A stretch of 64,000 nucleotides of DNA from an uncultured Gammaproteobacteria bacterium (GTDB lineage Bacteria > Patescibacteriota > Microgenomatia > Levybacterales > UBA12049): positions 362,667 to 426,666 of the forward strand of contig CAZKJM010000001.1 in NCBI GenBank assembly GCA_964553245.1. The letters are read 5' to 3'. Position numbers and translations under genes: made by a program. Shown here piece after piece: positions 19,576 to 36,837 of the stretch; the stretch's first letter is position 1, and each line of letters begins with the position of its first letter. The notes under the pieces were generated by a model that made no database searches, was not told the origin of the DNA, and saw only the letters and a list, made by a program, of their open reading frames with translations.

Positions 19576-19598
19576 GGATAAAGGATGTTAGAACCTAT
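19576..19598 (-). repeat. Family-1 dispersed repeat copy A (partial, tail only)
   Basis: GGATAAAGGATGTTAGAACCTAT; core GGATGTTAGAACCTAT shared with 5 other copies; ends at stop codon of 19598-20290. Confidence 0.6.
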
Positions 19599-20290
19599 CA
19601 TGCTAGCTGCTTTTGAGCAGAACTATTAGATGCTTCCCATAATTTTTGAAACCATTTACTGTTTCTTTCTTTTCTTCTTGCTACTCTTCGGGAATTTTCA
19701 ATTTTCGCATGAATTGCATGCTCTCTTGGTAAAGATTTAAGCGCTTCTTCATTGATAAACATTAAGGGATTGCTCCTCCTAAGAGAAATATAATCACCAT
19801 CAGATTTTGAATACCAAACTTCTTCTTGATATTCAGGTGATTGAGGTGAATATTCTTTTAAAGAAGGCGTATAATATGTCATAAATTTAAGATCAATCTC
19901 TGTTATTTTATAACCTAAGTTTTTAAATTCATAAAGATTTCTTCTAAAAGCTAAGTATCCATTTTCCGATTCGTCAGAACCCGTATACACTGTAAGTTTT
20001 TCATACGGTTTGTTTGCTAAAAATCTCGCTGTTGCCTCTCTGGTTTCTTCGTGATTTTCTAGGCTCGATGTTCTATCTAGCTCTACTACTTTAATCGCAA
20101 ACTTCTTTTCATCACCAGGTAAATATATCCCCATCATCGCTTCCATAGGAATTGATCCTTCTCCTCCTGAGAATACTATTGTTGCATTAGTGGGATTTCC
20201 TGGAACAGTTTCCAATAAATTCCATAGAATTTGCTGATCTGGTTTTTCGATTTTGTCTTTGGGGGGGAATGTTAAACGCTCTGCGCTCAT
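19598..20290 (-). CDS. Hypothetical protein (less AT-rich gene carrying family-1 repeat at 3' end)
   Basis: 230-aa ORF; composition differs from neighbours; repeat core GGATGTTAGAACCTAT abuts stop. Confidence 0.4.
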   Translation of the reverse strand: MSAERLTFPPKDKIEKPDQQILWNLLETVPGNPTNATIVFSGGEGSIPMEAMMGIYLPGDEKKFAIKVVELDRTSSLENHEETREATARFLANKPYEKLTVYTGSDESENGYLAFRRNLYEFKNLGYKITEIDLKFMTYYTPSLKEYSPQSPEYQEEVWYSKSDGDYISLRRSNPLMFINEEALKSLPREHAIHAKIENSRRVARRKERNSKWFQKLWEASNSSAQKQLA

Positions 20291-20475
20291 TAAAAATTAA
20301 AATAACATTATAATTTAGCTATGTCAATAATGGAAATTATTGATAAAAATATTTTCCTAATGGCATCTACTCCAACAAAAAATTCCTGCTCACTAATTGA
20401 CTCCGGAAAATGTCGAGTGATGGTGAGATTCTGGAAAAAATCGAAGAGGAGAAAATTAAAAATTATTTATCCCAA

Positions 20476-21339
20476 TTATTTTCTTAATCTTCTTGAGTAA
20501 AAATTAGCAAGCCTAATTCCCGCAATAGATAAAGCATAAATCCGATCTGTTTCTGGAATTACTTCTATTATCTCGTCCATTTTTTGCATATCCCCCATTG
20601 CTCCTGCTACTTTTACTGCTCCGGTTAGATTACCTTTTTTTATTAAAAGATCAATTATCTTGCCTGCCCTTTGAGCATCGTCGATTATTGCTGCAGCTTC
20701 TCCTGCTATTGAATTTAGATAACCTTTTTCTGCTCTATCATACAATGCCGCATCTATTGCTTTAATTGAAAAGTCTTTATTACCTGACAATGCAGTTATA
20801 TATGCTGCTATTTCAAACTTTTGCATTCCAAAAAGTTCTTCTGCTTTTTTTGTTACATCCTGCGTATCACCAGTTATTCTACTAAGCTTTGCGCTTAGGG
20901 TTCCTGCATCAAGAGAAGTAGGAGATAATTGATTAATTGCTTCTTTAACAGATTCTGTATCATTTATTTCAGCTGCAATTGCTCCTGCTGTCCCTGCTCC
21001 GTGGACTCGAGAAAAACAATGTTCCATAGCAACTGTTGCCTGATCAGTTATTCCCAATAACGCTGAAATCATTCCATATTCATAGACGCTCGAACCCAAA
21101 TCTATGTCGCTTTGAGGATGAGCGATTTGTTTTTTTAGTTTTTTAAGCGTTTTTTTTGCTAAGCCTTTGTTTTCAACTGTAGCTGCAATAATTCCTGACC
21201 CTTTATAATATTTATTTTTAAAAAGATAGCCAGCAATTTCATTTAGTCTTTTCTTTACCGCTGACTCTTTACTTTCTATTTTTATAAAAACCTCTTGTTG
21301 TTCTGAAATAAAATTATCTCCAACTTGTCGCTCAGCCAT
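20476..21339 (-). CDS. Hypothetical Ala/Gly-rich protein
   Basis: 287-aa ORF, no recognised motif. Confidence 0.4.
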   Translation of the reverse strand: MAERQVGDNFISEQQEVFIKIESKESAVKKRLNEIAGYLFKNKYYKGSGIIAATVENKGLAKKTLKKLKKQIAHPQSDIDLGSSVYEYGMISALLGITDQATVAMEHCFSRVHGAGTAGAIAAEINDTESVKEAINQLSPTSLDAGTLSAKLSRITGDTQDVTKKAEELFGMQKFEIAAYITALSGNKDFSIKAIDAALYDRAEKGYLNSIAGEAAAIIDDAQRAGKIIDLLIKKGNLTGAVKVAGAMGDMQKMDEIIEVIPETDRIYALSIAGIRLANFYSRRLRK

Positions 21340-21384
21340 AAACGTATTCTATCAAAAAAAATATAATATATCAAACAATATCAA

Positions 21385-21417
21385 CTCCGCGGGATGGACG
21401 ATGTTAGAACCTATTTT
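21385..21417 (-). repeat. Family-1 dispersed repeat copy B
   Basis: CTCCGCGGGATGGACGATGTTAGAACCTATTTT, 5 nt downstream of stop of 21422-22216. Confidence 0.6.
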
Positions 21418-21421
21418 ATAA

Positions 21422-22216
21422 CTATTGACTAGTAACTAAACCTATTCCTTCTGCTATCTTAGCCTGCCTATCAAATCGCTGAGCTTTGCCTCTTAGCCAT
21501 TCCTTCATCTCTTCTTCAAGTTTAGGAAGTCTTTCTCTGGTTTTTTTATAAACTCCATCATTGTCTTCAACTTTCTTAAACCATTCTGGTTCATCCATAT
21601 CATAAAAAGTTTTGCCATATTTTTCTTTGAACTGCTGACCCCATGTTAAGAAAGTCACTCTAAACTCTGCTCCTTCGATATCATTCATACCATAATGACC
21701 AAATGCAACAACTCCCCAAAGATTTTTAAATAAAGCAAACTGTTCCATTTCCCGAGCCTGTCCTTCATCAAGTACGCCTGGATCTTTTTTCTTAATATCT
21801 ATTCCTAATTGATGAGGAATAGAAGGGTATTTATCGTCTTTGGATACTCCAAGTGTTGGACGAAGATATTCTCTTAACCCTTCGCTAATAATACCTTTTG
21901 CTGCATCTGTTCCTGGATAATAAAAATCTATTAAATCCCCTAATCTTTCGTCCATTGGGTTTTTAGGAGAGTTATAATTATCGTAGCCGCTAAAAGACTT
22001 ATTTATGCCTATCGTCCAAATGTTTCCTCTCAATTGCTTAGGTAATTTCTTACAAAGCTCTACAATTTCTTTCGCTGCCTCTATTGGAGACTGGGGTGTC
22101 TCGTGTATTAATCTTATTGCCCTAGAGGCCTTTTTATAATCAGGGTCGTGCTTTTGAGCTTGCTCTCCTAGCTTAATTGCAATATCTGGTCCTGTAGGTC
22201 TGTCTAATTCTGTCAT
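21422..22216 (-). CDS. Hypothetical protein
   Basis: 264-aa ORF flanked by family-2 repeat upstream and family-1 repeat downstream. Confidence 0.4.
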   Translation of the reverse strand: MTELDRPTGPDIAIKLGEQAQKHDPDYKKASRAIRLIHETPQSPIEAAKEIVELCKKLPKQLRGNIWTIGINKSFSGYDNYNSPKNPMDERLGDLIDFYYPGTDAAKGIISEGLREYLRPTLGVSKDDKYPSIPHQLGIDIKKKDPGVLDEGQAREMEQFALFKNLWGVVAFGHYGMNDIEGAEFRVTFLTWGQQFKEKYGKTFYDMDEPEWFKKVEDNDGVYKKTRERLPKLEEEMKEWLRGKAQRFDRQAKIAEGIGLVTSQ

Positions 22217-22264
22217 CTTACTGAGGCAGTTAGCTTATTATAGTTAATAAATATTAAATTTCAA

Positions 22265-22317
22265 GGGCTAAAAACGGAGCTCTGTGTGTCGGTCAAGAAC
22301 CATTTGAGGTCATAGTC
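22265..22317 (-). repeat. Family-2 dispersed repeat copy G
   Basis: GGGCTAAAAACGGAGCTCTGTGTGTCGGTCAAGAACCATTTGAGGTCATAGTC; shares head with family 1 and core TGTCGGTC...ATAGTC with copies at 35676, 35728, 36838. Confidence 0.55.
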
Positions 22318-22378
22318 TGTTTTTTCTCCAAAATAAATAAGACGAATGAGACAGTATAAAAATGTCTTAAAAATAAAG

Positions 22379-22407
22379 TTGACATATGCGACTTAGTCGC
22401 ATATAAT
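22379..22407 (+). promoter_or_regulatory. Sigma70-type promoter (TTGACA-17-TATAAT) with embedded 21-bp perfect palindrome ATATGCGACTTAGTCGCATAT = probable Zur operator; transcript likely leaderless
   Basis: TTGACA 22379-22384, palindrome 22384-22404 fills the spacer, TATAAT 22402-22407, ATG of zur at 22414. Confidence 0.55.
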
Positions 22408-22413
22408 AACCTT

Positions 22414-22797
22414 ATGAGTTTTCTTCAAAATCAAAAAACGAGAAAAAACGAAACTAAAAAAGAAATTATTGATCTTCTTTCAAAAACAAAAGCTCCTGTT
22501 GATGTAAATTTTATTATTTCAAAAGTTAAGTCTCATCGGGCAACAATTTTTAGATCCCTTAATAAGCTTGTAAATACCGGAGATATAAAAAGGTTAGACT
22601 TTCAAGAAAAAAAAGCCAGATATGAACTCGCCAAAGATCATCATCACCACCTAATATGCGAAAATTGCGGAAAAATTGAGAAAATCTCAAATTGTATTGT
22701 TTCGAACTTGGAAGAAAAGGTCAATAAAGAGAAGAAATTTTTAATAAAGTCTCATTCTCTTGAATTTTTTGGCTTATGCCATAAATGTCATACTTAA
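22414..22797 (+). CDS. zur: Fur-family metalloregulator, probably Zur
   Basis: Winged-helix N-terminus, HHHHLICENCGKIEKI ... CHKCH metal sites; first gene of znu operon. Confidence 0.65.
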   Translation: MSFLQNQKTRKNETKKEIIDLLSKTKAPVDVNFIISKVKSHRATIFRSLNKLVNTGDIKRLDFQEKKARYELAKDHHHHLICENCGKIEKISNCIVSNLEEKVNKEKKFLIKSHSLEFFGLCHKCHT

Positions 22798-23794
22798 AAC
22801 AATGAAGAAAAATATTCTATTTATTTTTGTAATCTTAATTATTATCGCCGGTTTTTATACTCTGTTTTCATTCTTAAACAAAACTACTACTAATAACTCG
22901 GGAAAAATTGTAATTATAACCACTCTTTTCCCAACTTATGATTTTGCCAAAAATATTGGAGGCGACAAAGTTGATGCTTCTCTACTTTTGCCACCCGGGG
23001 TAGAAGCTCATTCCTTTGAGCCAAAACCAAGCGATGTCACAAGAATTAATCAAGCAAATATTTTTGTTTATACAGGTGAATTCATGGAACCGTGGGCCCA
23101 TGACATTATTGAAGGTGCTAATAAAAAAGTGAGAATAGTTGATGCAAGTACCGGAATTAAACTGTCTGTAGATAATGGCCATGACCATGACCATAATCAT
23201 GAAACGGAAGAGCATAAAGATGAAGAACATTACGCAGAGGAAGAACATCATCATGTCCACAATGGAGTAGATCCTCATATCTGGCTTGATTTCGATAACG
23301 CCATCCAAATGGCAAGTAATATTGAAAAAGCTCTGGAAGAAATTGACCCAAAAAATAAAGCTTATTATCAAGATAATTTAAATAAATACCAACAATCTCT
23401 CTTAGAACTCGATGATACATATAAAGAATCTCTTTCTAATTGTCAGACTAAAACAATCGTATATGGTGGTCATTATGCTTTTGGCTATTTAGCAAAGAAG
23501 TATGGGCTTGAATATGAAGCAGCTCAAGGCTTCTCGCCTGATGCAGAACCAACTGCAAAAGACATGATTTCCCTTATAGAACAAATCAAGAAAAACAACA
23601 TTAAGTACATTTTCTACGAAGAGCTAAGCAGTCCAAAGATTGCGGAAACTTTAGCTAAGGAAACAAGCGCAAAGATGCTTCTTCTAAATGGTGCTCATAA
23701 TTTGTCAAAAGAAGACTATGAAAAAAATACTTCTTATCTAACAATCATGAAAGAAAACCTCGCCAATTTAAAAATTGGGTTAATATGCAATTAA
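22760..23794 (+). CDS. znuA: Zinc ABC transporter substrate-binding protein ZnuA (true start probably M at 22805)
   Basis: Signal/TM, cluster-9 SBP fold motifs, His/Asp/Glu-rich loop DNGHDHDHNHETEEHKDEEHYAEEEHHHVH. Confidence 0.7.
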   Translation: MNFLAYAINVILKTMKKNILFIFVILIIIAGFYTLFSFLNKTTTNNSGKIVIITTLFPTYDFAKNIGGDKVDASLLLPPGVEAHSFEPKPSDVTRINQANIFVYTGEFMEPWAHDIIEGANKKVRIVDASTGIKLSVDNGHDHDHNHETEEHKDEEHYAEEEHHHVHNGVDPHIWLDFDNAIQMASNIEKALEEIDPKNKAYYQDNLNKYQQSLLELDDTYKESLSNCQTKTIVYGGHYAFGYLAKKYGLEYEAAQGFSPDAEPTAKDMISLIEQIKKNNIKYIFYEELSSPKIAETLAKETSAKMLLLNGAHNLSKEDYEKNTSYLTIMKENLANLKIGLICN

Positions 23795-23817
23795 TGTCTG
23801 CAAAGGAAGTGAAGTAA

Positions 23818-23982
23818 ATGAAGTTTTACAATGTTAAAACAAGACAATTTGTCGGGGTTGATGACAGCAAGGTTGAAGTAATAACCATGAAAAATGGGAA
23901 AAAAGCCGCAAGAGCCATTGTAGATGGCATGAAACTATTTAAAATCATGAGCACAGAAGACGCAGTGAAATTAAGCAAGTAA
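23818..23982 (+). CDS. Unannotated 54-aa ORF inside znu operon (MKFYNVKTRQFVGVDDSKVEVITMKNGKKAARAIVDGMKLFKIMSTEDAVKLSK)
   Basis: Open frame between znuA and znuC with plausible spacing; below ORF-track size cutoff; function unknown. Confidence 0.3.
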   Translation: MKFYNVKTRQFVGVDDSKVEVITMKNGKKAARAIVDGMKLFKIMSTEDAVKLSK

Positions 23983-24093
23983 CAGTATTTGCCAAATGCC
24001 TTCGTTCGGCATTTTACACAATATATTTTTCAGAGAGTTTTTATAGAAAAGAACTCTCTGAATTTGGTATTATTAGCTATAAATATTAAAATT

Positions 24094-24843
24094 ATGGATA
24101 CTATTTTAAAAGTTAACGATTTATCAATTCGCTATGAACAAACAGAAGCAATTAAAAATGTTTCTTTTGAAGTTAAAAAAGGCGATTTTATTGGACTGGT
24201 AGGGCCGAATGGCGGAGGGAAAACAACATTAGTAAAAGCTATTTTAGGCCTTATTCAATATTCTGGAGAAATTAATCTTCTAAGTAAAACTCAAAAAAAA
24301 TTTAATTCCTTTTCAAAAATCGGCTATTTACCGCAAAAACAAACGAGCGTTAATCCGCTCTTTCCTGCCTCAGTTAAGGAAGTTGTCTTACTTGGATTAT
24401 TGTCAAGCAAGAAATCTTTTAAAAAAATTAATAAAGAAGATCTGCAGAAAACAGAAAATACACTCGAGACGCTTCACATCTCAAAGCTTAAAAATAAAAT
24501 GTTTTCAGATCTTTCAGGAGGCCAACAGCAAAAAGTATTGCTGGCTCGAGCCCTAGTTTCAAATCCGGAAATTTTAATTCTTGATGAACCCTCAACAGCT
24601 CTTGATCCTAAATCAAGAGAGGATTTTTTTTCTCTTGTTGAAAAACTAAATAAAAAAAATAAAACAACAATTATTTTAATTACTCACGATACCGGATATA
24701 TCGGAAAATATGCCAATAAGCTTCTCTATATCGATAATCAGTTAGTATTTTTTGGAGAAATAAAAAAGTTCTGTCCATCTAAAGATGTTAAGACATGTTT
24801 TGAAAAAAGCGATAAGCATATTATTTGGCATCAACATAAATAA
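24094..24843 (+). CDS. znuC: Zinc ABC transporter ATP-binding protein ZnuC (start taken at internal ATG 24094; track ORF begins 23989)
   Basis: Walker A GPNGGGKTT, signature LSGGQQQKVLLARAL, Walker B ILILDEP. Confidence 0.7.
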   Translation: MDTILKVNDLSIRYEQTEAIKNVSFEVKKGDFIGLVGPNGGGKTTLVKAILGLIQYSGEINLLSKTQKKFNSFSKIGYLPQKQTSVNPLFPASVKEVVLLGLLSSKKSFKKINKEDLQKTENTLETLHISKLKNKMFSDLSGGQQQKVLLARALVSNPEILILDEPSTALDPKSREDFFSLVEKLNKKNKTTIILITHDTGYIGKYANKLLYIDNQLVFFGEIKKFCPSKDVKTCFEKSDKHIIWHQHK

Positions 24844-24846
24844 ACT

Positions 24847-25656
24847 ATGGAATTATATCAATTATTTCAATATGCCTTTATTCAAAAAGCTTTTCTAGCT
24901 GGATCATTTATTGCGATTAGCTGTGCTTGTCTTGGTCTTTTCCTTGTACTTAGAAAGATGTCTTTAATAGGAGACGGATTATCGCATGTAAGTTTCGGAG
25001 CAATAGCCCTAGGACTATTTTTTGGCTTATATCCTTTTTACGTTGCAATTCCTCTGGTTATCATGGCTTCTCTTCTAATTCTAAAAATTAGTGAAAAAGC
25101 AAAAATTTATGGAGATTCTGCAATTGGCATCGTATCAGCATTTGGAATTGCAGGGGGAATAATCTTGGCCAGTCTTTCTAATGGATTTAACGTTGATTTA
25201 TTTAGTTATCTTTTTGGAAACATCCTTGCTGTTAGCACAAATGAAGTAATTACTTCTGTCTTCCTTTCATTGGTTGTTCTGATTACAATTTACTTTTTTT
25301 ATTGGGATTTATTCTCTGTCACATTTGATCTTGAGTATGCAAAAACTACCGGAATTAAACCAAATTTTATAAATTCCCTTTTAACCATTCTCACCGCTGT
25401 TGTCGTTGTTTTGTCAATCAAGGTAGTTGGAATCATGCTGGTTTCTGCTCTTTTAATTTTACCTGCAGTCACCGCTTTGCAAATTTCAAAAAAATTCAAA
25501 ACCACTTTGTTTATTAGCTGCATTACATCTTTTATATCGGTATTCTTGGGAATAGCAATTTCGTTTTTAATTGATCTCCCAACAGGGGCTACAATTGTAA
25601 TGATTAACGCTTTTTTCTTTACAACAGCTTTCTTTTCTAAAAGATTACAACGGTAA
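24847..25656 (+). CDS. znuB: Zinc ABC transporter permease ZnuB
   Basis: 8-TM ABC-3 type permease immediately after znuC. Confidence 0.7.
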   Translation: MELYQLFQYAFIQKAFLAGSFIAISCACLGLFLVLRKMSLIGDGLSHVSFGAIALGLFFGLYPFYVAIPLVIMASLLILKISEKAKIYGDSAIGIVSAFGIAGGIILASLSNGFNVDLFSYLFGNILAVSTNEVITSVFLSLVVLITIYFFYWDLFSVTFDLEYAKTTGIKPNFINSLLTILTAVVVVLSIKVVGIMLVSALLILPAVTALQISKKFKTTLFISCITSFISVFLGIAISFLIDLPTGATIVMINAFFFTTAFFSKRLQR

Positions 25657-25685
25657 AATTATACTTACCAAAAGATCTACTTTTC

Positions 25686-25729
25686 CTAAAAACGGAGCTC
25701 CGAGGGATAGAGGATGTTAGAACCTATTT
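25686..25729 (-). repeat. Family-1 dispersed repeat copy C (full length, contains stop codon of 25724-26176)
   Basis: CTAAAAACGGAGCTCCGAGGGATAGAGGATGTTAGAACCTATTT; stop CTA(rc TAG) at 25724-25726 lies inside AACCTATT. Confidence 0.65.
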
Positions 25730-26176
25730 AGGCTTAACATGCCAAGAGGTTTTTATTGCAGGGAGCTCTTCTCGTATAGCTGATAATCTGTTATTAACTT
25801 GATCTGCAGGGGTTTCATCTTTAAATATTTCTGGAAAGATGATTTTTCTTCCACTTGCTGATTCTGAAGTGAAAACTACACGTGACAGAACAGAACCCTT
25901 ACTTTCAATTACTGCATCAACGGATGTTCCACCTTTATCTTTTAAAGCATCTATAAAAGTTCCTAGCGATTTTTTTCTAATAGTAGACTTTCTTACTCTA
26001 TCCATTATCTTGGTAAATTTTCCTCTAGTTAGATCAACAACCTTAACGCTTTCATCCAATCCTTCAACAATTACTTTAGTTCCTTTTGGGGCTTTAAGAA
26101 TTGTTACTTCCGTAACTGTCCCAACAGGATTTCCATACATATCTTCAAGTCCATGTGGCGTTTCAACTAATGGCAT
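25724..26176 (-). CDS. Hypothetical protein
   Basis: 150-aa ORF, stop embedded in family-1 repeat. Confidence 0.4.
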   Translation of the reverse strand: MPLVETPHGLEDMYGNPVGTVTEVTILKAPKGTKVIVEGLDESVKVVDLTRGKFTKIMDRVRKSTIRKKSLGTFIDALKDKGGTSVDAVIESKGSVLSRVVFTSESASGRKIIFPEIFKDETPADQVNNRLSAIREELPAIKTSWHVKPK

Positions 26177-26220
26177 AGTTGGGTGATTATATTGTTCAAA
26201 CAGTAAAAAGTCAAATTGAG

Positions 26221-26267
26221 GCTAAAAACAGAGCTCCGAGGAATGGAGGATGTTAGAACCTTATTTT
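26221..26267 (-). repeat. Family-1 dispersed repeat copy D (full length)
   Basis: GCTAAAAACAGAGCTCCGAGGAATGGAGGATGTTAGAACCTTATTTT; stop of 26261-26596 at 26261-26263 inside repeat. Confidence 0.65.
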
Positions 26268-26596
26268 CCTAATTTCGTATTCAAATTTTGTTTTTTTTCA
26301 ACAAAAGCTGTTTTTTTATTTTCCTTCCTAATTGGTCCGTGAACTTCATTTGGAAACATTTCTTGATATACATTATCTAAAACCCTTGGCTTATCTCCTG
26401 TTGCTATATTGGCGATTGCTCTTAAATAATGACTTCCCAAGCCTTGTTCGGTAAAAATTACCCAGCTGTCTTTTTTATAACCGTATCCTTCCAATATTTT
26501 TTGAGCCGCTTCTGGACTCATTCCTGGAATGCCTTTTACCGCTTCTCGTCTCTGTTCTTCAATTGGCCTTGGTGTTTCTTTCGAATCTTCAAGCAT
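26261..26596 (-). CDS. Hypothetical protein
   Basis: 111-aa ORF. Confidence 0.4.
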   Translation of the reverse strand: MLEDSKETPRPIEEQRREAVKGIPGMSPEAAQKILEGYGYKKDSWVIFTEQGLGSHYLRAIANIATGDKPRVLDNVYQEMFPNEVHGPIRKENKKTAFVEKKQNLNTKLGK

Positions 26597-26627
26597 AAAC
26601 TGATTATATCAGAAGTTCGAAGCATGA

Positions 26628-26675
26628 GGGCTAAGAATGAAGCTCCGAGGGATGGAGGATATTAGAACCTATTTT
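26628..26675 (-). repeat. Family-1 dispersed repeat copy E (full length, variant GGATATTAGAACC)
   Basis: GGGCTAAGAATGAAGCTCCGAGGGATGGAGGATATTAGAACCTATTTTT; stop of 26662-27306 (TTA rc TAA at 26662-26664) inside repeat. Confidence 0.65.
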
Positions 26676-27306
26676 TGTGATAAATATTCTCATTGCTGAA
26701 GGAACTCTTGTTAACAACAACACTTCTACGTCCAGATGTATTAATTTTCAAAAGCGTATTAACCTCAATGCCTGTTTCTTCTTTTATTTTATTTAGGCCT
26801 TCTTTTTCTACTCTTTCTGCTATTGCTATTGCTCTTATTATTTTAACATTCATTTGCTGAAGCGTTTTAATCATCGCAGTCATTGTTTTCCCAGAATCTA
26901 TGATATCATCTACGATGACTACCCTATCATTCCCCAAAAGTCCATTAAAATAAAGAGACATGTTCTTATTGTAAGATATTGAAAATTTTACCCCTTTTTC
27001 CCCTGGTATCTTACATGGATTTTGTTTTGCCAAACAAAAAGGAAGATCAACCGCTAAGGCTAAACAGGCAGCGATATATCCTCCCCTTTCTTCTTCTCCA
27101 ACTATCTTGTTTATCCTGTTTAAATCTGTTCCTAAACTATCTATAACCCCATTAATTACCTGCTTCATGATTAAAGGTGTTGTTGAAGGAATATGATCAG
27201 TTAAAGTATTTATTAAATACGTATCCCTTTCATTAATCTTAATTATTTTTTGATTATCGAATGCCTTAATTAAATCTTTCATTAAAATTAAGTAAAGATT
27301 ATACAT
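26662..27306 (-). CDS. Type I phosphoribosyltransferase domain protein
   Basis: PRPP-binding motif VVIVDDIIDSGKTMTAM. Confidence 0.55.
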   Translation of the reverse strand: MYNLYLILMKDLIKAFDNQKIIKINERDTYLINTLTDHIPSTTPLIMKQVINGVIDSLGTDLNRINKIVGEEERGGYIAACLALAVDLPFCLAKQNPCKIPGEKGVKFSISYNKNMSLYFNGLLGNDRVVIVDDIIDSGKTMTAMIKTLQQMNVKIIRAIAIAERVEKEGLNKIKEETGIEVNTLLKINTSGRRSVVVNKSSFSNENIYHKNRF

Positions 27307-27360
27307 ATAGACTGTGGTTTACGCAAGAATGTATACAGATATTAATAAGATAACCGTTTA

Positions 27361-28566
27361 TTAAATTACTTTTTCAAGCAATATAACACTTTTCCCTTTT
27401 GCTTTTTTTCGAAAAGCTATTCTAATATTCTTACTTTTTGCTATTGTTCCAAAAAGGACAGATATTACCGTTGAACTAGAAGAAAGACACATTAAGCCAT
27501 TATTACTTAATAAATCTGTAAATTGCTGCAGGTATAAACCATATGTTAATATTTTTTGTTTTCTAGGAACAATACCGATAATTAAGTTGAATTGTTTTTT
27601 GGGAATTTTAAATTCAACTTGATGATAAATAAAGGCTTTTATTCCATATTTCTTAAGATTATGTCTTGCGGTAAGTAATGCTAATAAATCCCTATCTACT
27701 AAATGAACTGCATTTCTCTGAAATGCTTTACATGCTACTAATGGAATATATCCTTGTTTTACATTAAAACATATAATTTCATTAGTATTGTTGTTTTTAA
27801 TTTTTTTTATATTATCTATTAATAAGCTTGTTTCGTAGTTTAATTGATCAAACTCAGGCAAATTGTAACTAACATCTAGTTCATATTCACAATCCTCAAA
27901 CCTTAACTTATTTTGCCCACGAAAGAATAATTTCCTCCCAAAAAGAAGTTGCTTTGGTTTCAATAGTCCTTTATGGTTAATAAATTTATAGTGATAAACA
28001 TGATGCCCGGGCCAATTCTGATGGTAAAGTATTGCAATATCGTCGTCTTTTTCTAGGAACTGTGAAACTAGATCATTAATATCATCAATAACCACTATTG
28101 CCATCGTTCCATTTTCCGTTAAATACCTTTTTGCTTCCTTAATCATATGTTTCAGAGTCGCCTTGCCTACTTTAGCTGGAATATTAGAAGTAATTAAATT
28201 AAACTCATTAGTAGCAATTTGCTCATACCCTAAGCTAGGGTAAACCTTAACATTGTCAACATGATTAAGCTTAACGTTTTCCTTGCAGTATTCTATTGCT
28301 AAAGCATCATAATCGACCATATGTACTTCTGCTGACGGACATATTTTTTTTAACACAATTCCTATTGGCCCATAGCCACATCCTAAATCAAGAGCTTTTT
28401 TATAAGAATTTATCTTTTGATAAAGCAGAGACCGGATTAATCTTTGAGTACCATGATCAATGTTCTGTGAACTAAATAAGTCTTGAGATACCTTAAATTT
28501 TAATTCTTGATCAAGAAATTTATATAAAATTGTTTTTTTATAAAATGATTCTGTTATATTCATCAC
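27361..28566 (-). CDS. Class I SAM-dependent methyltransferase (MTS/RsmC-like, two-lobed)
   Basis: DLGCGYGPIGIVLKK motif I; 401 aa with second degenerate MTase-like half. Confidence 0.5.
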   Translation of the reverse strand: MMNITESFYKKTILYKFLDQELKFKVSQDLFSSQNIDHGTQRLIRSLLYQKINSYKKALDLGCGYGPIGIVLKKICPSAEVHMVDYDALAIEYCKENVKLNHVDNVKVYPSLGYEQIATNEFNLITSNIPAKVGKATLKHMIKEAKRYLTENGTMAIVVIDDINDLVSQFLEKDDDIAILYHQNWPGHHVYHYKFINHKGLLKPKQLLFGRKLFFRGQNKLRFEDCEYELDVSYNLPEFDQLNYETSLLIDNIKKIKNNNTNEIICFNVKQGYIPLVACKAFQRNAVHLVDRDLLALLTARHNLKKYGIKAFIYHQVEFKIPKKQFNLIIGIVPRKQKILTYGLYLQQFTDLLSNNGLMCLSSSSTVISVLFGTIAKSKNIRIAFRKKAKGKSVILLEKVI

Positions 28567-29579
28567 TGGTAGATATCTTTGGAAAATGCCTTCTGTGGGC
28601 TAATGTTTTGGTTATTGTACCACAATATATGGGTTTTTATAATTTGATCTATTTGTGAATGCTTGGTTTTAAAACCTAAAACCCTATTGAGCTTAAAGGG
28701 ATCTGCTATTAAAATTTCGGGATCACCTAGTCTTTTGCCCTTGAATATAATTGATATTTTTTTAGATAAAAGTTTTTCACAGGTTTTAATAACCTCTAGA
28801 TTCGAATACCCCTTGCCTGTACCAACGTTAAAAACATTGAATTTTTTAATTTTTCGAGACAACATTGCTCTAAGTGCAACTACATGAGCTTCTGCTATAT
28901 CGAGAACGTGAACATAATCTCTTATGCATGTTCCATCTTTGGTATTATAATTATTACCAAAGATCAATATGGGTTCTTCGTTTATGGCATTTTTAATAAC
29001 ATTTGGGATAAGATGAGTTTCTTTTTTGTGGTTTTCCCCAAGATTACCATCTAAAGAGGCTCCAGCAACATTAAAAAACCTTAGGCAAGCAACGTTTAAC
29101 GTATCTGATTTTGATACATAACGTAAAAGGTTTTCTGTTTCTAATTTTGTTTCCGCATAAGGATTAATCGGATGAGGAATCATATTCTCATTTATTTTTT
29201 TACTAGAACTATTTCCATATATTGAACAACTAGATGAAAAAATAAAATTTTTAATGTTTGCATTCATACATTCTGAAATTAAAATATAAGATGCTACGGA
29301 ATTATTCTCATAATATTTCATGGGATTCTTATAGGATTCCTCTACCGATGCACAAGCAGCAAAATGCATAATTGCGGAAAACCTATATTTGTTTAAAATC
29401 GTTTTAAGTAAAGCTTTGTCTTGAATTTGCCCTTGATAAAATTCTGCCCTAGAATTGATTGCTGACCTATCGCTATTTTCAAGACTATCAACAACAACCA
29501 CCTTGTAACCAAGATCTATTAATAGCTTCGTAGTGATTGCTCCTATATATCCTGCTCCTCCAGTAACTAAAATGTTCAT
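28563..29579 (-). CDS. galE: UDP-glucose 4-epimerase family (GalE-like NAD-dependent epimerase)
   Basis: MNILVTGGAGYIGAITTKLL Rossmann motif, catalytic YAETK. Confidence 0.6.
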   Translation of the reverse strand: MNILVTGGAGYIGAITTKLLIDLGYKVVVVDSLENSDRSAINSRAEFYQGQIQDKALLKTILNKYRFSAIMHFAACASVEESYKNPMKYYENNSVASYILISECMNANIKNFIFSSSCSIYGNSSSKKINENMIPHPINPYAETKLETENLLRYVSKSDTLNVACLRFFNVAGASLDGNLGENHKKETHLIPNVIKNAINEEPILIFGNNYNTKDGTCIRDYVHVLDIAEAHVVALRAMLSRKIKKFNVFNVGTGKGYSNLEVIKTCEKLLSKKISIIFKGKRLGDPEILIADPFKLNRVLGFKTKHSQIDQIIKTHILWYNNQNISPQKAFSKDIYQ

Positions 29580-29621
29580 AATGACATAAATTATACTATA
29601 ATACGCGTTAATATCTATATT

Positions 29622-30479
29622 ATGAACAAAAAAGAAAGAATTCTGATAATCGGAGCTTCTGGATTCTTAGGAACATGTCTTTATAATTTTTTTTCAAAGA
29701 AGACGAGCTTTGTCGTAAAAGGAACATATTTCAATAATGAAAACGAGATATTCGAAAAATTAGACATTTTAGATTATGACCAAGTATTAAGAATCGTTAA
29801 ATTGTTTAAACCTACAATAATAATTCATGTGGCAGGAGCTGCTAGGCCTACTTTATTCAAAAACAGACAGAATAATAATTTACATGAACTAAATTACTGT
29901 GGAACAAAGAACATTATTGATTGTGCTAATATCATTAAGGCAAAAATTATTTTTTTTTCATCTTTGTTTGTTTTCAATGCAAATGATAATAATCTTTTCT
30001 CTGAATTGAGCCAAGTTTGTCCTCTTGGTCTTTATGGTAAATCTAAAGCTGAATCTGAAAAATTAATTAAAACAAATAATAAGTATTTAATCATTAGAAC
30101 AGACCTTTTATTTGGTTATAATGGCAAAAAGCTCAATAATGGATTGTTAAATCTAATATTAGACAATAATGACATGCATTTTCCTAAAAATGAGATAAGA
30201 AAGCCTTTATACGTTGATGATTTATGCAGTATAGTAGAAGCTCTAATTAAGCAGAAATATACAGGGATCTTACATATTACAGGAAATCAGCCTATTTCAT
30301 ACTATGATTTTGTAAAAACAATTAGTCTTGAACTTGGTATGAGCCAGAAAATTAAAAATTATAATAGCGAATATCAATCTTTGCCCATTCTAGATACTAA
30401 TAAATTTAAAAATATGAAACACAAAATTTCTTCTATTAGTGAATCAATAAACAAGATTAAGAGGAAAATTAATGTTTAA
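29622..30479 (+). CDS. RmlD-like NAD(P)-dependent sugar reductase/epimerase (dTDP-4-dehydrorhamnose reductase family)
   Basis: ILIIGASGFLG Rossmann motif, YGKSK catalytic dyad, 285 aa. Confidence 0.5.
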   Translation: MNKKERILIIGASGFLGTCLYNFFSKKTSFVVKGTYFNNENEIFEKLDILDYDQVLRIVKLFKPTIIIHVAGAARPTLFKNRQNNNLHELNYCGTKNIIDCANIIKAKIIFFSSLFVFNANDNNLFSELSQVCPLGLYGKSKAESEKLIKTNNKYLIIRTDLLFGYNGKKLNNGLLNLILDNNDMHFPKNEIRKPLYVDDLCSIVEALIKQKYTGILHITGNQPISYYDFVKTISLELGMSQKIKNYNSEYQSLPILDTNKFKNMKHKISSISESINKIKRKINV

Positions 30480-31593
30480 TATGAAAGCATTAACAATAGC
30501 AGAAGCTATAAATAAGCACAATAATGACTATTCAAATTTAGAAAATAAGTTTACTAAAAAATATGGCTTTTCTATCAATCTTGACCCTTTTCATCCACCA
30601 ATATGGGCGAGAAAATCAATAGTAAAATCTATTAGTGTAGTTATTCCTTCTTATAATAGCTCTAACTCAATTGTCACCTGTCTTTATGCTATAGAAAAAA
30701 GTAGCTTTAATTATAAATTCCCAGAAAAATTAGAAGTTATAGTGGTAGATGATGGTTCAACAGATAACACATGGGATAAGCTAATATCACAAAATTATAA
30801 CTTAAACTTAATGTTAATTAAGCAAAAAAACTATGGACAAGCCCAAGCTTTAAATACGGGCATCAGTAAAGCAAAGGGAGAAATTATTGTGTCTTGTGAT
30901 TCTGATATGATTTTATCGTATTACACATTAGAACATTTTTCATTAAGGCACTCAGAATGCCCAAATGCTTTATTTGCTGGCTTTAGGCACGATACTCATG
31001 TTTCTGACGTAAGAGTTGACGAAAACTATATAAAAAGGAACGGGCCGCATAGATACCCAATCTTCATAGCTGACGAAAGGCTTAATTTTCCTCATAAAGA
31101 CTTTTATAGCTCAATGTGTATTAGTACAAATCATTATAAAGATTTTAGAAATGGAAAAAAATTATATATGCCCAATAATAAAGAATGGCTTTTGCCAGAT
31201 CTTGTTTTCGGAGCTTTATTTAGTTTGAGTAAAAATGTTTTTACACAAATAGGTGGCTACGATGAAAGATTTAAGGGCTGGGGGTGCACAGATGGCTTCT
31301 TAGCTGCAAAAGCTATTTCTACTGGAAGTTTTATTATCCCTTTGTATTGTGCATCGGGATTACATATACACCATAAAGACAGAAGCAATAAAAAAAATAG
31401 TGAATTTCAGAATAATAGAAAAAAGTTTTATCGATTTATAAAAAATGATAAAACGAGTCACTATAGAGACTACTTAAAACATGCTTATAGGCGGATAGAG
31501 GAAATAAAACTAATTAAACATGGAAAAAATAATGCAAATAAAGCAGCAAATAAGCATAGAGCCTTAGGTGAAAACATCTTGAAATATAACTAA
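30472..31593 (+). CDS. Family 2 glycosyltransferase
   Basis: SVVIPSYNSSNSI ... LEVIVVDDGSTDNT ... DSD motifs of GT2. Confidence 0.6.
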   Translation: MFNMKALTIAEAINKHNNDYSNLENKFTKKYGFSINLDPFHPPIWARKSIVKSISVVIPSYNSSNSIVTCLYAIEKSSFNYKFPEKLEVIVVDDGSTDNTWDKLISQNYNLNLMLIKQKNYGQAQALNTGISKAKGEIIVSCDSDMILSYYTLEHFSLRHSECPNALFAGFRHDTHVSDVRVDENYIKRNGPHRYPIFIADERLNFPHKDFYSSMCISTNHYKDFRNGKKLYMPNNKEWLLPDLVFGALFSLSKNVFTQIGGYDERFKGWGCTDGFLAAKAISTGSFIIPLYCASGLHIHHKDRSNKKNSEFQNNRKKFYRFIKNDKTSHYRDYLKHAYRRIEEIKLIKHGKNNANKAANKHRALGENILKYN

Positions 31594-31594
31594 T

Positions 31595-32638
31595 ATGAAT
31601 AAATTAAAAATAGCAATAATCTCAAATTTTGAATATCATTGTGGATCAAGCAATACTATTTTAGGCTATCTTAAGGCTTGTAAAAAAAAAGGTATTGACC
31701 TCCGATTATCCGAACTTGGCAACATTGATAATGTTGGAAAAGAAAAATTTCCCATCGCTGATTCTTCATGGAATCCAGATTTAGCGATTATTGTATTTGA
31801 ATCGTATCAGTTCTTATCAGAAGCAAAGATTTGTAAAATAATTTCAAGAATTCCAAGAACAAGGAGAATTATCATTGATCCAGATGCAAAATATTCTACT
31901 CCATGTCATTACAAAAATGACTGTAACCATAAAAACAATAACGAATATATGAAATGGCATGATTTATATAACTGTCTCTCTGATACTATATTGCAGCCAT
32001 CCCTAGTAGGATCTCGTACATTAAACGTTCATACTTTTTTATATTTCGGAATGGATAATATGAAGCAAACAACTGCAAAGACGAGACTTTATGATCTGAT
32101 ATATATTGGAAACAACTGGTTTCGTTGGCAAGATATGTCTAAGTTAATAAGAAAAACACAAACAATCAGAGAAATATTGCCAAAAATTGCAATTGGTGGT
32201 CGTTACTGGAATGAAGAAAATATGAATAATTTTAGCTATGCTACGTTTTCTAATCCTAAATACCTAGTTAATAATAATATCGATTTGTTAGGAGTAATTC
32301 CTTTCGGGAAAGTTGAATCAACCATGAGTCAGGGGAAAATAAATCCAATATTCATTCGTTCAATATTAAATCACATGAATTTAGTTACTCCAAGAATGTT
32401 TGAGACTTTTTGTGCTGATACAGTTCCAATAGTACCCTCCTATTTCAAAGAAGCAGAAACGTTGTATGGAGAAAAAATAAAAGAATTAATCTTTTCGGGA
32501 AACAATACCAAAGAAAAGCTTATTGACATTGTTAAAAACAATAATTATTATAGCAACTTAACTAATGAGATCAAGAATGAGCTTTTTAAGAAACACTCCT
32601 ATGAACAAAGACTAAAGGAATTGTTAAATTTTTTATAA
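31595..32638 (+). CDS. Hypothetical protein in glycan cluster
   Basis: 347 aa, soluble, Cys/His-rich; translationally coupled to GT2. Confidence 0.35.
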   Translation: MNKLKIAIISNFEYHCGSSNTILGYLKACKKKGIDLRLSELGNIDNVGKEKFPIADSSWNPDLAIIVFESYQFLSEAKICKIISRIPRTRRIIIDPDAKYSTPCHYKNDCNHKNNNEYMKWHDLYNCLSDTILQPSLVGSRTLNVHTFLYFGMDNMKQTTAKTRLYDLIYIGNNWFRWQDMSKLIRKTQTIREILPKIAIGGRYWNEENMNNFSYATFSNPKYLVNNNIDLLGVIPFGKVESTMSQGKINPIFIRSILNHMNLVTPRMFETFCADTVPIVPSYFKEAETLYGEKIKELIFSGNNTKEKLIDIVKNNNYYSNLTNEIKNELFKKHSYEQRLKELLNFL

Positions 32639-32646
32639 AGAAATCT

Positions 32647-33771
32647 ATGAAAAAAATAATTCTAACTGCACAAGACTTCGCTTATGGACCAATTGGTAAA
32701 TTACTTGATCTAGTTTCACACATGGAAAATAAGTTTTTTGAGCTAGTATTTATTGGTTTTGGAACATCTTTGCAACTTGCAAAAAAACATAAGTTTAGCA
32801 AGGTATACAAAATAGATACGGAATTGAGCAAGAACAAGAATAAATTAAAAAACATCGTCAAAGATGCAGATCTTTTAATAAGCTCCATGGATCTTCCAAG
32901 CTTAGAAATCGCACAAGAGTTGGGGATAAAAAATGTTTGGATAGATTGTTTATTTTGGTTTTGGGATGAAATTCCAAAGATTGCCCAAAAAGCGGATCTT
33001 TACATAGCAGAAATATCTATAAATAATAAAAAAAATTTAAAAAAATTTAAAAAAAAAATTAATAACTTACTAATGGTTAATACTATTTTACCAAAACTCA
33101 ATAAGAAAAAAGTTGAAAAACAGGTCCTAATTTCCCTTGGAGGAGCTGAAGCAACTCACTGTTATCAAATAGGAAAAGATACCTATTTCCCTTTTATTAT
33201 GACAGAGATTTTATTAAAATATGTTGATTGGTCATGTTTTGACAAAATATATTTAGCAACCAATCAAAGAATTTTGTCAAAACTAAAAGGATTGTTTAAA
33301 AAAACTAAAATTATCTTCTGTTGCCTAGAGCACACAAAGTTTGTAAATACCTTATCCAATTCAGAAGTGACATTAATAACACCAGGACTTGTAACAACCC
33401 AAACAGCTTTCTATGCAAAAACCCCTGTACTTTTTTTACCTGCGTCAAACAATAGCCAATATTTACAACTGGAGGAATATCGTAAGGAAGGGCTTGCTAA
33501 GGCTTCTGTTTCACTGTCTGATTTTATTGGAAAATTAGATTTTTCTAATAAAAGAGAGGCTGAAGCAAATGAAATGGTAATTAATCAAATAAGCTCCATT
33601 AGGAACAATACTTTTGTGAAAAAAGCCATTGGGGACAAAATTGATAAATTACTCAAGGATAGAAATCGTTGGGCTCAAAACGCCGTTAATGTTGGCAGTA
33701 ACTATATTTATAAACGAGGAGCAAATGGGGCGATTCAGGCACTAAGAGCGATAGAAAGTTTAATGCGCTAG
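32647..33771 (+). CDS. Hypothetical protein in glycan cluster (possible GT-B-like)
   Basis: 374 aa soluble protein; no confident motif. Confidence 0.35.
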   Translation: MKKIILTAQDFAYGPIGKLLDLVSHMENKFFELVFIGFGTSLQLAKKHKFSKVYKIDTELSKNKNKLKNIVKDADLLISSMDLPSLEIAQELGIKNVWIDCLFWFWDEIPKIAQKADLYIAEISINNKKNLKKFKKKINNLLMVNTILPKLNKKKVEKQVLISLGGAEATHCYQIGKDTYFPFIMTEILLKYVDWSCFDKIYLATNQRILSKLKGLFKKTKIIFCCLEHTKFVNTLSNSEVTLITPGLVTTQTAFYAKTPVLFLPASNNSQYLQLEEYRKEGLAKASVSLSDFIGKLDFSNKREAEANEMVINQISSIRNNTFVKKAIGDKIDKLLKDRNRWAQNAVNVGSNYIYKRGANGAIQALRAIESLMR

Positions 33772-33782
33772 TTATTACTTAC

Positions 33783-34382
33783 ATGAATACACAAGCTTTA
33801 GTTAGAAATAATTATAATAAGATATTTAAAATTTATTCTGAGCAAAGACATAAAACGAAAAATGATTACTATCTTAATCTATTCAATAAACTACTAAAAA
33901 GAAACTCAACGATATTAGATCTAGGTTGTGGCTGCGGGAAACCTGTCTCAGAGTTTTTTTTAAAGAGAAAACATAAGATTGTCGGTTTAGACATTTCGAT
34001 AAAACAAGTTGAATTGGCGAAAAAAAATTTTCCTAAAGAAAGTTTTTTCGTAAGAGACATAGCTAATTTAGAATATAATGAGTTTTCTGTAGACGCAATT
34101 GTATCTTTCTATACAATATTTCACATAGCACGTAACACGCAGGAAGAATTATATAGGAAGATTAACTCTTTTATGTACAGCGGTGGAAAAATATTATTAA
34201 CATTGGGATCGTTTGAATGGGAAGGTATTGCAAATTTTCATGGAGGGAAAATGTACTGGAGTCAATTTGGGAGAAAAAAAAATATAAAATTATTAAAAAA
34301 TGCTGGCTTTAATATTTTATTAGAGGAAATTGATAAAAATGACGAATTTAAACACCAAATAGTTATTGGTGAAAAAATATAA
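33783..34382 (+). CDS. Class I SAM-dependent methyltransferase
   Basis: ILDLGCGCGKPVSEF motif I, VDAIVSFY motif. Confidence 0.55.
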   Translation: MNTQALVRNNYNKIFKIYSEQRHKTKNDYYLNLFNKLLKRNSTILDLGCGCGKPVSEFFLKRKHKIVGLDISIKQVELAKKNFPKESFFVRDIANLEYNEFSVDAIVSFYTIFHIARNTQEELYRKINSFMYSGGKILLTLGSFEWEGIANFHGGKMYWSQFGRKKNIKLLKNAGFNILLEEIDKNDEFKHQIVIGEKI

Positions 34383-34498
34383 CCAAAATTAGTTTAAAAA
34401 AAACTTTCTAAACAAATCGTAGATCTTCAATTGTGCGACATGAGCTATAATATTCCTAATGACTGGTAATACCCTATTTTACGTTTATATCGTTGAAT

Positions 34499-34532
34499 GC
34501 TCCGTGGGATGGACGATGTTAGAACCTATTTT
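34499..34532 (-). repeat. Family-1 dispersed repeat copy F
   Basis: GCTCCGTGGGATGGACGATGTTAGAACCTATTTT, 9 nt downstream of stop of 34541-35620. Confidence 0.6.
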
Positions 34533-34540
34533 ATTTCCTA

Positions 34541-35620: not shown

Positions 35621-35675
35621 ATATCAAAATTAGTATCTAATATAAAATATATTTTGTCAAACTAAAACTAAACCT

Positions 35676-35727
35676 GAGCTCCGCATGTCGGTCTAGACCC
35701 GTTTCGGGTTATAGTCCTATCTGGCTC
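35676..35727 (-). repeat. Family-2 dispersed repeat copy H1
   Basis: GAGCTCCGCATGTCGGTCTAGACCCGTTTCGGGTTATAGTCCTATCTGGCTC; internal hairpin ACCCG-TTT-CGGGT. Confidence 0.55.
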
Positions 35728-35763
35728 TATGTGTCGGTCAAGAATCATTCAAAGTCATAGTCG
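35728..35763 (-). repeat. Family-2 dispersed repeat copy H2 (tandem, truncated head)
   Basis: TATGTGTCGGTCAAGAATCATTCAAAGTCATAGTCG directly abutting H1. Confidence 0.5.
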
Positions 35764-35834
35764 TTCAGGCCTAAATCTTTGAACAATAAACAACTCTTCA
35801 GTATAATTTAAAATGCTATAATGCGAATAAGTCT

Positions 35835-36176
35835 ATGAAAAATTTCATATCGCTTCTTATTTTAGTTATTTTACTTTCTTTCTTTATAACAACTAATTCT
35901 TCTCCAGTCTCGATTTACATAGGCCCATATATATTTAATGTCCCTTTTTCAATAGCTTTAATACTCCCTCTTTGCATAGGCCTTTTAATTTTTACAGTTG
36001 TTTATTTAGCTAAGGTTAGAAGAATAGAATCTGTAATTAAGCACAATGAAAACGAAATAAATGATCTGCAAAATTCTATTACCCAGTTAAATAAACAAGT
36101 ACATCAATTAAAAATAGAAAATAATAAACTAAAAACCAGACTTGGAGATAAATCATTTGACGATGAATCTATATGA
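35835..36176 (+). CDS. Small membrane protein with C-terminal coiled coil (LapA/DUF1049-like)
   Basis: Two N-terminal TM then heptad-rich LQNSITQLNKQVHQLKIENNKLK. Confidence 0.35.
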   Translation: MKNFISLLILVILLSFFITTNSSPVSIYIGPYIFNVPFSIALILPLCIGLLIFTVVYLAKVRRIESVIKHNENEINDLQNSITQLNKQVHQLKIENNKLKTRLGDKSFDDESI

Positions 36177-36697: not shown

Positions 36698-36837
36698 TCT
36701 CGCTTATAACTTGCTTTTCGGGATTTAATTTTACACAAAGTAAGTTAAAAATACTCTGAAGCTAAAGTTGTTTAAATCCTATATGCTCTGTGCATCAGTC
36801 AAAAAAATTTTTCGGCTTTAGTTATATTATCCAGGAT

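Follow-up and report, generated by a model that had tools for sequence, protein, structure and literature searches.

Gene-end repeats in a Levybacteria-like genome probably derive from the 3' half of tRNA-Asn and mark an island of serial insertions at that tRNA gene

The large serine recombinases (LSRs) CcrAB and CcrC of staphylococci insert the cassette chromosomes SCCmec and pseudo-SCC at the 3' end of a conserved gene, and the resulting tandem composite arrays, recombinase-less cassettes included, carry short direct repeats with the integration site between the units. For islands linked to tRNA genes, sublocation classes were reportedly set out by Williams in 2002. In Prochlorococcus, islands are built by tycheposons, which integrate site-specifically at tRNA genes; newcomers push older elements inward into the island, and scattered partial tRNAs and fragmented integrases remain there as remnants (Hackl et al., bioRxiv 10.1101/2020.12.28.424599). 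The cargo of tycheposons consists of nutrient-uptake genes, including those for zinc homeostasis, and a minority of these elements use an LSR (bioRxiv 10.1101/2020.12.28.424599). Here, we describe an island at a tRNA-Asn gene in a stretch of 64,000 nucleotides (contig CAZKJM010000001.1, positions 362,667 to 426,666; this whole stretch is hereafter the window) from a bacterium of the Levybacterales (Patescibacteriota). Along the island, a short repeat, F1, lies at the ends of six genes, and we consider, with a probability of about 0.72, that F1 has diverged from a copy of the tRNA-Asn(GTT) 3' half and represents the element-side (P) arm left as an attR-type scar by DNA integrating at the 3' end of tRNA-Asn.

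The window resembles tycheposon islands in its tRNA target, its partial-tRNA remnants, the apparent outward displacement of older elements and the presence of LSRs in some elements. It differs from them in that the host is a Levybacteria-like member of the candidate phyla and the single target is tRNA-Asn(GTT), in that the LSR reading frame runs into the tRNA gene, in that the repeat does not reproduce part of the tRNA exactly but is a non-folding variant that is conserved and recurs in different genomes, and in that many segments are single-gene units of 0.4-1.8 kb with a promoter-bearing left end and without recombinase or replication genes. The target of SCCmec, by contrast, is the protein-coding gene rlmH/orfX; its cassettes measure kilobases to tens of kilobases and its recombinase frame does not overlap the target. 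Classical tRNA islands and prophages likewise have an intact tRNA gene at one end, a direct repeat of the tRNA 3' part at the other and a recombinase gene beside the tRNA, but their repeat is usually identical to the tRNA over the crossover and their enzyme is usually a tyrosine integrase, whereas here only about GGAGC(CA) is exact. Integrons, too, hold one-directional series of mostly single, often ORFan genes, and their repeated site can contain a stop codon; they depend, however, on IntI, on folded single-stranded attC hairpins and on promoterless cassettes transcribed from Pc, none of which was found here. Four features of a tRNA-anchored island are present in the window: an intact tRNA gene at one end, co-oriented repeats derived from the tRNA 3' part, variable content with breakpoints and a recombinase gene beside the tRNA.

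Six copies of F1 lie in the window; they share one orientation and are confined to 15 kb downstream of a single tRNA gene. The 13-mer GGATGTTAGAACC, with at most two mismatches, matched six times, always on the + strand (starts at 19583, 21399, 25712, 26248, 26657 and 34514), against a shuffle expectation of 1.06, and none of 100 shuffles reached six; a de novo search for repeats in the window, which is AT-rich (~30% G+C), returned the same six copies as one family (D1, identical to F1). A profile built from 67 copies outside the window detected five of the six at E values of 1e-11 to 1e-13 and the copy at 19577-19598 at 1e-4. In gene sense, the 29-nt core reads AGGTTCTAACATCGTCyATCCCnCGGAGC, is preceded by (AAAT) and shows 90% conservation over its 29 nt between genomes. 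The first-pass annotation, made from the letters of the window, had reported six same-strand copies at the 3' ends of minus-strand genes, and both observations hold for all six: a minus-strand open reading frame (ORF) precedes each copy, which overlaps the stop codon or follows it by 0-16 nt, the stop beginning between 16 nt before and 6 nt inside AGGTTC. The arm carries TAG and TAA in two reading frames, and in copy 5 it encodes the last residues and the stop of a phosphoribosyltransferase gene. We attribute the location on stop codons to the compactness of the segments, which end with a gene at the arm so that the arm supplies the TAG or TAA. The proteins encoded just upstream of the copies are mutually unrelated; the 264-aa protein before copy 2 has no homologue except itself among 5.8e9 proteins, and PADLOC and NCBIfam searches of the cassette proteins were uninformative, save for one purine phosphoribosyltransferase.

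In related genomes, F1 is tied to tRNA-Asn. Among 58 F1-bearing loci, ARAGORN found 14 tRNA genes, 13 of which are tRNA-Asn(GTT). This gene lies upstream of the F1 copies in 10 loci besides the window, and in 11 of the 12 loci that have a tRNA-Asn, the window included, all copies are downstream of it and co-oriented with it; the recurrent F1 neighbours rpoD, dnaG and purA represent the conserved side of the tRNA-Asn locus. On the unspliced window, ARAGORN detected no tRNA, because a group I intron of 206 nt splits the gene: Rfam matched a group I intron at 52247-52454, in the anticodon loop, and ARAGORN identified the joined exons as tRNA-Asn(gtt). The six F1 copies of the window all lie downstream of this gene and on its strand. 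The F1 core and the 3' half of tRNA-Asn(GTT) have ~22 of 29 positions in common, being similar and not identical: both contain AGGTTCTA, which in the tRNA covers the variable loop and the first part of the T stem, and CGGAGC, which covers the acceptor end with the discriminator base and the first C; the middle of F1 is a non-pairing look-alike of the T arm. This derivation from the tRNA-Asn 3' half, together with the link to a serine recombinase described below, was missed in the first-pass annotation. Intron-split tRNA-Asn genes were also observed in two other loci (L031, 10135-10342; L074, 11613-11842), those of most relatives being uninterrupted. On the upstream side of the gene, the window has 876 nt with a 251-aa ORF (52469-53224, minus strand; weak helix-turn-helix (HTH) matches), the stop of which overlaps the 5' end of the tRNA gene, whereas L031 has ~100 nt there, an insertion/deletion difference.

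Comparisons between related loci locate the junctions at the same short motif. Loci L016 and L026 have in common a flank with a promoter and an S51 peptidase gene (92% identical), which is preceded by tRNA-Asn(GTT) in L026 and by a gene, its stop and F1 in L016, and the join falls exactly after GGAG(C/T). Between the window and L031, where the flanks are 97-98% identical, homology stops at the CCA end of the tRNA (52198) and resumes at F1 copy 6 (34.5 kb); beyond this copy, flank identity to L031 is 97.8%, while the preceding gene differs, and the interval holds 17.6 kb in the window and a different 10 kb in L031, the latter encoding an FtsK-like protein and a type I restriction system. In L075 and L076, the LSR genes are 99.7% identical over 1656 nt, and identity ends at the 5' edge of GGAGCCA, before which stand tRNA-Asn in L075 and a gene stop plus an F1-like arm in L076. 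The partners share only a short core, given that identity at the L075/L076 junction starts at GGAGCCA and that LSR tails diverge right after W-L. The F1 core has breakpoints on either side (L015/L048 compared with L019; the window compared with L031), and in L007 a B block (a short motif described below), a promoter and a gene follow the tRNA itself in the same layout as they follow F1 elsewhere. The comparison with relatives that the first-pass annotation recommended bears out its view of the repeat as a cassette-boundary element and not a simple terminator: the copies delimit gene segments that differ between strains, related contigs contain one-strand repeat-gene-repeat-gene arrays, and strain breakpoints fall at the repeat.

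The recombinase gene of the window ends antisense inside the tRNA. Its product has the tail ...RPIW-LPREDSNLEP-stop, of which the last 11 codons (LPREDSNLEP-stop) are the antisense of the tRNA-Asn 3' half and DSN is the antisense of the T loop. The family to which it belongs has >2,500 members, mostly in candidate-phyla bacteria. We inspected the C-terminal tails of 36 homologues: ~20 are tRNA-antisense (WLPR.DSNL.P), ~7 are F1-like (for example, WLRAMDDVRTY in P0011), 7 stop after W-L and 2 are of other kinds, and all of them diverge right after W-L, that is, TGGCTC, the antisense of GAGCCA. Proteins P0014, P0021 and P0013 are encoded on tRNA-Asn(GTT) and P0053 on an intron-split tRNA of the same type; by locus, homologues lie on tRNA-Asn in L070, L072 and L075 and on an intron-split tRNA in L074, and the LSR-bearing tRNA-Asn genes are often beside rpoD-dnaG. 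The opposite strand of F1 also encodes recombinase tails. LSR frames run into F1 or F1-like arms in L037, L065, L066-69 and L076; those of P0011 and P0027 do so after the stop of a convergent gene, and in L037 a remnant of an LSR gene ends antisense in a canonical F1, with the tail ...SPNW-LREMDDVRTCFK-stop.

Two further sequence blocks accompany F1. The B block (TTAGCCTCAA) stands 3-8 nt after many copies (18 of 67, against a background of 1.1%) and is followed by a good -35/-10 promoter and then the next gene. The first-pass annotation had placed a head, GGCTAAAAAC.GAGC, on four of the six copies in the window; we found it at three (25.7, 26.2 and 26.6 kb), and the fourth head, at 22262-22278, is beside a member of a second repeat family, D2. 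Units of D2 are 46-50 nt long, bounded by GAGC, and contain an internal ACCCG-AAA-CGGGT hairpin; they occur singly or in tandem in at least eight loci besides the window, accompany F1, can stand between the F1 core and the B block (as in L033) and have an internal joint that is conserved across genomes. The 5' half of D2 is similar to the last LSR codons read in antisense (GAGCCAGATAGGAC), and its 3' part aligns with the tRNA-Asn 3' half, so that from its sequence the unit looks like both arms of an attachment site (P' and P) fused with nothing between them. The sequences that follow GAGC are related in all contexts, whether LSR 3' end, D2 5' half or B block, which fits a common P' arm. A partial D2 copy was also seen near 36778-36830.

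F1 recurs well beyond the window. A strict 22-nt F1 pattern, used against species-representative genomes and metagenomes, matched 9 loci in the former, mostly in metagenome-assembled genomes (MAGs) of Levybacteria, and 54 metagenome loci; contigs binned as Saccharibacteria, Omnitrophota and a Geothermarchaeota archaeon were matched as well. The profile search revealed F1-gene-F1-gene arrays in related loci; in 24 of the 25 multi-copy loci all copies lie on one strand, and a co-directional ORF stops within 30 nt upstream of 52 of 74 copies, compared with 7% of random positions. In a few cassettes (L015, L046), a reverse-oriented gene lies between F1 copies, which links F1 to segment ends and not to transcripts. 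A 55-nt consensus had no BLAST match in phage and plasmid collections, and a pattern scan of viral contigs for the repeat was likewise negative. One F1 copy was observed in L005, a contig of 54% G+C binned as a Geothermarchaeota archaeon, and a close recombinase homologue, P0032, in a 385-kb contig of a Bathyarchaeia MAG; either cross-domain spread or mis-binning would account for such archaea-assigned contigs.

These findings together suggest the following course of events. An element would integrate at the 3' end of tRNA-Asn by exchange in or beside GGAGCCA, which spans the acceptor end of the tRNA with its discriminator base and CCA; its P arm, F1, would stay at the far end of the inserted segment, and each new integration at the tRNA would push older segments outward. 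The outcome would be a one-directional array of tRNA-Asn, segment, F1, segment and F1, which in the window would run from 52.2 down to 19.6 kb. The probable catalyst is the LSR, the gene of which lies at the tRNA-proximal end of autonomous elements, antisense across the junction, and the B block and the D2 5' half, both related to the last LSR codons, would form the matching P' side. In the window, the distal boundary of the LSR element probably lies at 36891; the gene module of this element is also present in L066, L070, L072, L074 and L076, and its DUF5659 gene is as in the sister elements. The small cassettes may still be mobile. Positions of all features are listed in Table 1.

Table 1. 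Features of the window, and one exceptional locus outside it, with positions in nucleotides unless stated otherwise
Feature	Position or length	Strand	Remarks
tRNA-Asn(GTT)	52198..52478	-	exon 1 52478-52445, group I intron 52444-52239, exon 2 52238-52198 including CCA
tRNA-Asn-anchored island	19577..52197		at least seven segments bounded by F1/D2 scars, in tRNA orientation
Proposed LSR integrative element	36891..52197		higher G+C (0.37-0.43); restriction-modification genes, DUF5659 gene, LOOT RNA, LSR gene
LSR gene	50593..52233	+	Pfam Resolvase, Recombinase and Zn_ribbon_recom; ends antisense inside tRNA-Asn 3' half
LOOT RNA (RF03000, function unknown)	48851-48961	-	inside the LSR element
Segment 1 outward from tRNA	~52.2-36.9 kb		LSR element
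Segment 2 outward			ends at F1 copy 6
Segment 3 outward	7.8 kb		glycan-synthesis cluster; ends at F1 copy 5
Single-gene cassettes	409 and 536 nt		end at F1 copies 4 and 3
Segment with znuABC-fur and an ORFan	4.3 kb		ends at F1 copy 2
Outermost segment	1.8 kb		ends at decayed F1 copy 1
Degenerate F1-like arm (..GTACCCATTTCTC/GAGC)	~36891-36920	-	precedes D2 unit; likeness to L076 arm by eye only
D2 unit	36841..36890	-	proposed distal end of LSR element
Two tandem D2 units	35678..35773	-	each bounded by GAGC; upstream of 359-aa gene
F1 copy 6	34498..34532	-	13 nt past stop of 359-aa gene; profile E 3e-13; proposed pseudo-tRNA-Asn 3' half (P arm, attR-type scar)
F1 copy 5	26642..26675	-	contains TAA stop of 214-aa phosphoribosyltransferase gene
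B block	26626..26641	-	after F1 copy 5; then extended -10 promoter of 111-aa gene
F1 copy 4	26233..26266	-	abuts stop of 111-aa gene
B block (TTAGCCTC + spacer)	26218..26232	-	after F1 copy 4; then -35/-10 promoter of 150-aa gene; proposed P' arm
F1 copy 3	25697..25729	-	first bases overlap TAG stop of 150-aa gene
Degenerate B block (GTTTTTAGG)	25685..25696	-	after F1 copy 3
D2 unit + B block	22262..22328	-	D2 22279-22328, B 22262-22278; upstream of 264-aa gene promoter
F1 copy 2	21385..21417	-	9 nt past stop of 264-aa ORFan gene
F1 copy 1	19577..19598	-	degenerate, 3'-truncated, most distal; follows 230-aa gene
Exceptional locus L056	847-919 and 3029-3060		tRNA-Asn locus with opposite-strand repeat copies

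Several observations weigh against the reading of F1 as scars of LSR-mediated integration at tRNA-Asn. CnCGGA, the acceptor-like part of F1, differs from the acceptor strand of the local tRNA (CGGGGGA in the window), where a match is expected if exchange occurs 5' of the acceptor strand; because of this mismatch, either the exchange lies at GAGCCA or the arrays were assembled elsewhere. A canonical F1 stands beside an LSR only where the gene is a remnant (L037), and the intact LSRs with F1-type tails have more diverged arms (L065, L066, L076). The window LSR itself probably uses another arm, near 36.9 kb, and may be the wrong enzyme for the six F1 segments. Canonical LSRs recombine attP with attB only, and this LSR family is not known to integrate repeatedly at an occupied, attL-like site. 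The dyad AGG(TT)CTAA / TTAGCCT is weak and is centred ~8 nt 5' of GAGC, with an F1-to-B spacing of 3-8 nt, and the other inverted motifs, GTCTATCC with GATAGGAC, are also weak, off centre with respect to GAGC and variable in spacing. Two of the segments hold housekeeping-looking genes (znuABC-fur and the glycan-synthesis cluster), no circular form was found, and L076 is without terminal overlap. The one exception to the orientation rule is L056, in which F1 is on the opposite strand and lies upstream of tRNA-Asn; this layout may reflect an inversion or a second array.

The alternative that survives best retains F1 as partial-tRNA scars at a tRNA-Asn island, without a present function, and assigns the insertions to an agent other than an LSR, either a different integrase encoded elsewhere or, mainly and following DNA uptake, homologous recombination between the 30-nt repeats. 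It would explain why most arrays are without an adjoining recombinase gene, and it draws on the mismatch between F1 and the local acceptor strand, on the breakpoints found on both sides of the F1 core and on the other arm that the window LSR seems to use. We nevertheless consider this alternative unlikely: LSR ORFs read into F1 or F1-like arms in the loci named above, and in all cases examined the LSR family is linked to tRNA-Asn. None of 46 window ORFs showed a Phage_integrase domain in Pfam scans, and a phmmer search of 721 ORFs, from the window and other loci, with XerD as the query gave no match below E = 1, that is, no tyrosine recombinase, and 30 nt is short for efficient homologous recombination.

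The first-pass annotation had named a MITE/REP-like module as one possibility, and in its fullest form this idea would make F1 an autonomous repeat of the miniature inverted-repeat transposable element (MITE), repetitive extragenic palindrome (REP) or BOX type, spreading into gene 3' ends through a transposase encoded elsewhere. The modular make-up of F1, D2 and B block does recall BOX elements, AGG(TT)CTAA and TTAGCCT form a weak inverted repeat, and the internal joint of D2 is conserved across genomes. The copies, however, have no palindrome and no terminal inverted repeats of their own, no stable hairpin was found, and 67 aligned copies display no target-site duplication. Genome-wide dispersal was not seen either: the six copies of the 64-kb window cluster in one orientation within 15 kb downstream of one tRNA gene, and contigs of 62-679 kb contain a single strict-pattern match each. 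No lone insertion of F1 into conserved sequence was observed, as the neighbouring gene always differs too. A self-spreading repeat is, in our judgement, quite improbable.

It is more improbable still that F1 acts at the RNA level, as a terminator, processing site or stability element in the 3' untranslated region (UTR) of many mRNAs, even though it follows stop codons directly and, in L008, precedes a clear intrinsic terminator, so that it would be transcribed in the 3' UTR. The hairpin CUCC/GGAG with a U-run that was proposed in the first-pass annotation did not hold up: its stem is only 4 bp, and when eight copies were folded as RNA, on both strands, the z scores relative to shuffles were -1.3 to +1.8, which is no structure signal. 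Most family members elsewhere have GTCC in place of CTCC, and for this reason the 4-bp hairpin is lost in most of them. Rfam returned nothing at the repeats (the window at the gathering threshold; 25.5-26.8 kb at E up to 10), reverse-oriented genes are flanked by F1 in L015 and L046, and an RNA function leaves the tRNA-Asn linkage and the recombinase frames unexplained.

Least credible of all is an integron reading, in which F1 plus the B block would be an attC site of unusually small size and the arrays would consist of integron cassettes; the one-orientation series of genes, mostly single, mutually unrelated and often ORFans, with a repeat after each, the R''-like TTCTAAC with its stop codon and the possible bulged bases in the AGG(TT)CTAA/TTAGCCT pairing speak for it, but neither the window nor the loci searched yielded an integron-type tyrosine recombinase, no GTTRRRY partner is present (a by-eye hunt for a GTTAGAA-like partner gave weak, inconsistent matches only), F1 plus B spans only 39-47 nt whereas known attC sites have 57 nt or more (hairpins of 57-141 nt), folding is no better than shuffles over the z range given above, the cassettes have their own promoters, the conservation of the F1 core across genomes is unlike that of attC sites, and the tRNA-Asn anchor and LSR overlap are foreign to integrons.

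Further identities were considered and rejected. As an intrinsic terminator, F1 would have a stem of 4 bp, with CUCCG between stem and U-run, that is absent in most family members. The open frame of F1 on the gene strand, GSNIV(H/Y)P.E, has no start codon, is interrupted by an indel in L007 and shows mixed substitutions, and we do not regard it as coding. A DNA uptake sequence, a Ter site and a dif site were excluded by reasoning on orientation, clustering and the lack of dyad symmetry.

Returning to F1 as the scar of integration at tRNA-Asn, we speculate that the whole might amount to an integron-like gene-capture platform of candidate-phyla bacteria that is built from other parts. On this tentative proposal, which we hold as possible and no further, and which includes all of its details jointly, an LSR family that inserts serially at the tRNA-Asn 3' end would act in trans on recombinase-less single-gene cassettes with the layout B block (P'), own promoter, gene and F1 (P), 46-nt D2 mini units would consist of the attachment site only, and LOOT RNA would belong to the autonomous elements. 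A literature search on integrons in Patescibacteria and on LSRs at tRNA-Asn returned nothing relevant and no description of this system. Candidate-phyla bacteria (Patescibacteria) have tiny genomes, and the ways in which they acquire genes are little known; the locus suggests that insertions at a single tRNA gene have left a one-directional record over half of the 64-kb window, with a cargo that comprises ORFan genes, a zinc-uptake operon, a glycan-synthesis cluster and a restriction-modification element. F1 and D2, in combination with tRNA-Asn, could serve as a sequence tag for locating flexible islands in candidate-phyla genomes, provided it is borne in mind that a group I intron in a tRNA can hide an integration hotspot from standard annotation. 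The LSR family, with its >2,500 relatives and a predicted very short natural target, may be of interest for genome engineering.

The island also gives the orphan LOOT RNA a genomic home. This RNA was observed in 4 of the 6 LSR-element loci examined, namely, in the window and in L066 (5677-5790), L072 (7005-7112) and L076 (1048-1155), and in L072 and L076 it immediately follows the 3' end of a small gene of the HTH_17/MerR-like (excisionase-like) kind; tRNA-Asn-targeting elements may carry it as a standard component. On the conserved side of the tRNA-Asn locus, the DnaG primase encoded beside rpoD in L011 (5564-8509) contains an intein with a LAGLIDADG homing endonuclease and measures 981 aa, compared with ~590 aa in the window and other relatives.

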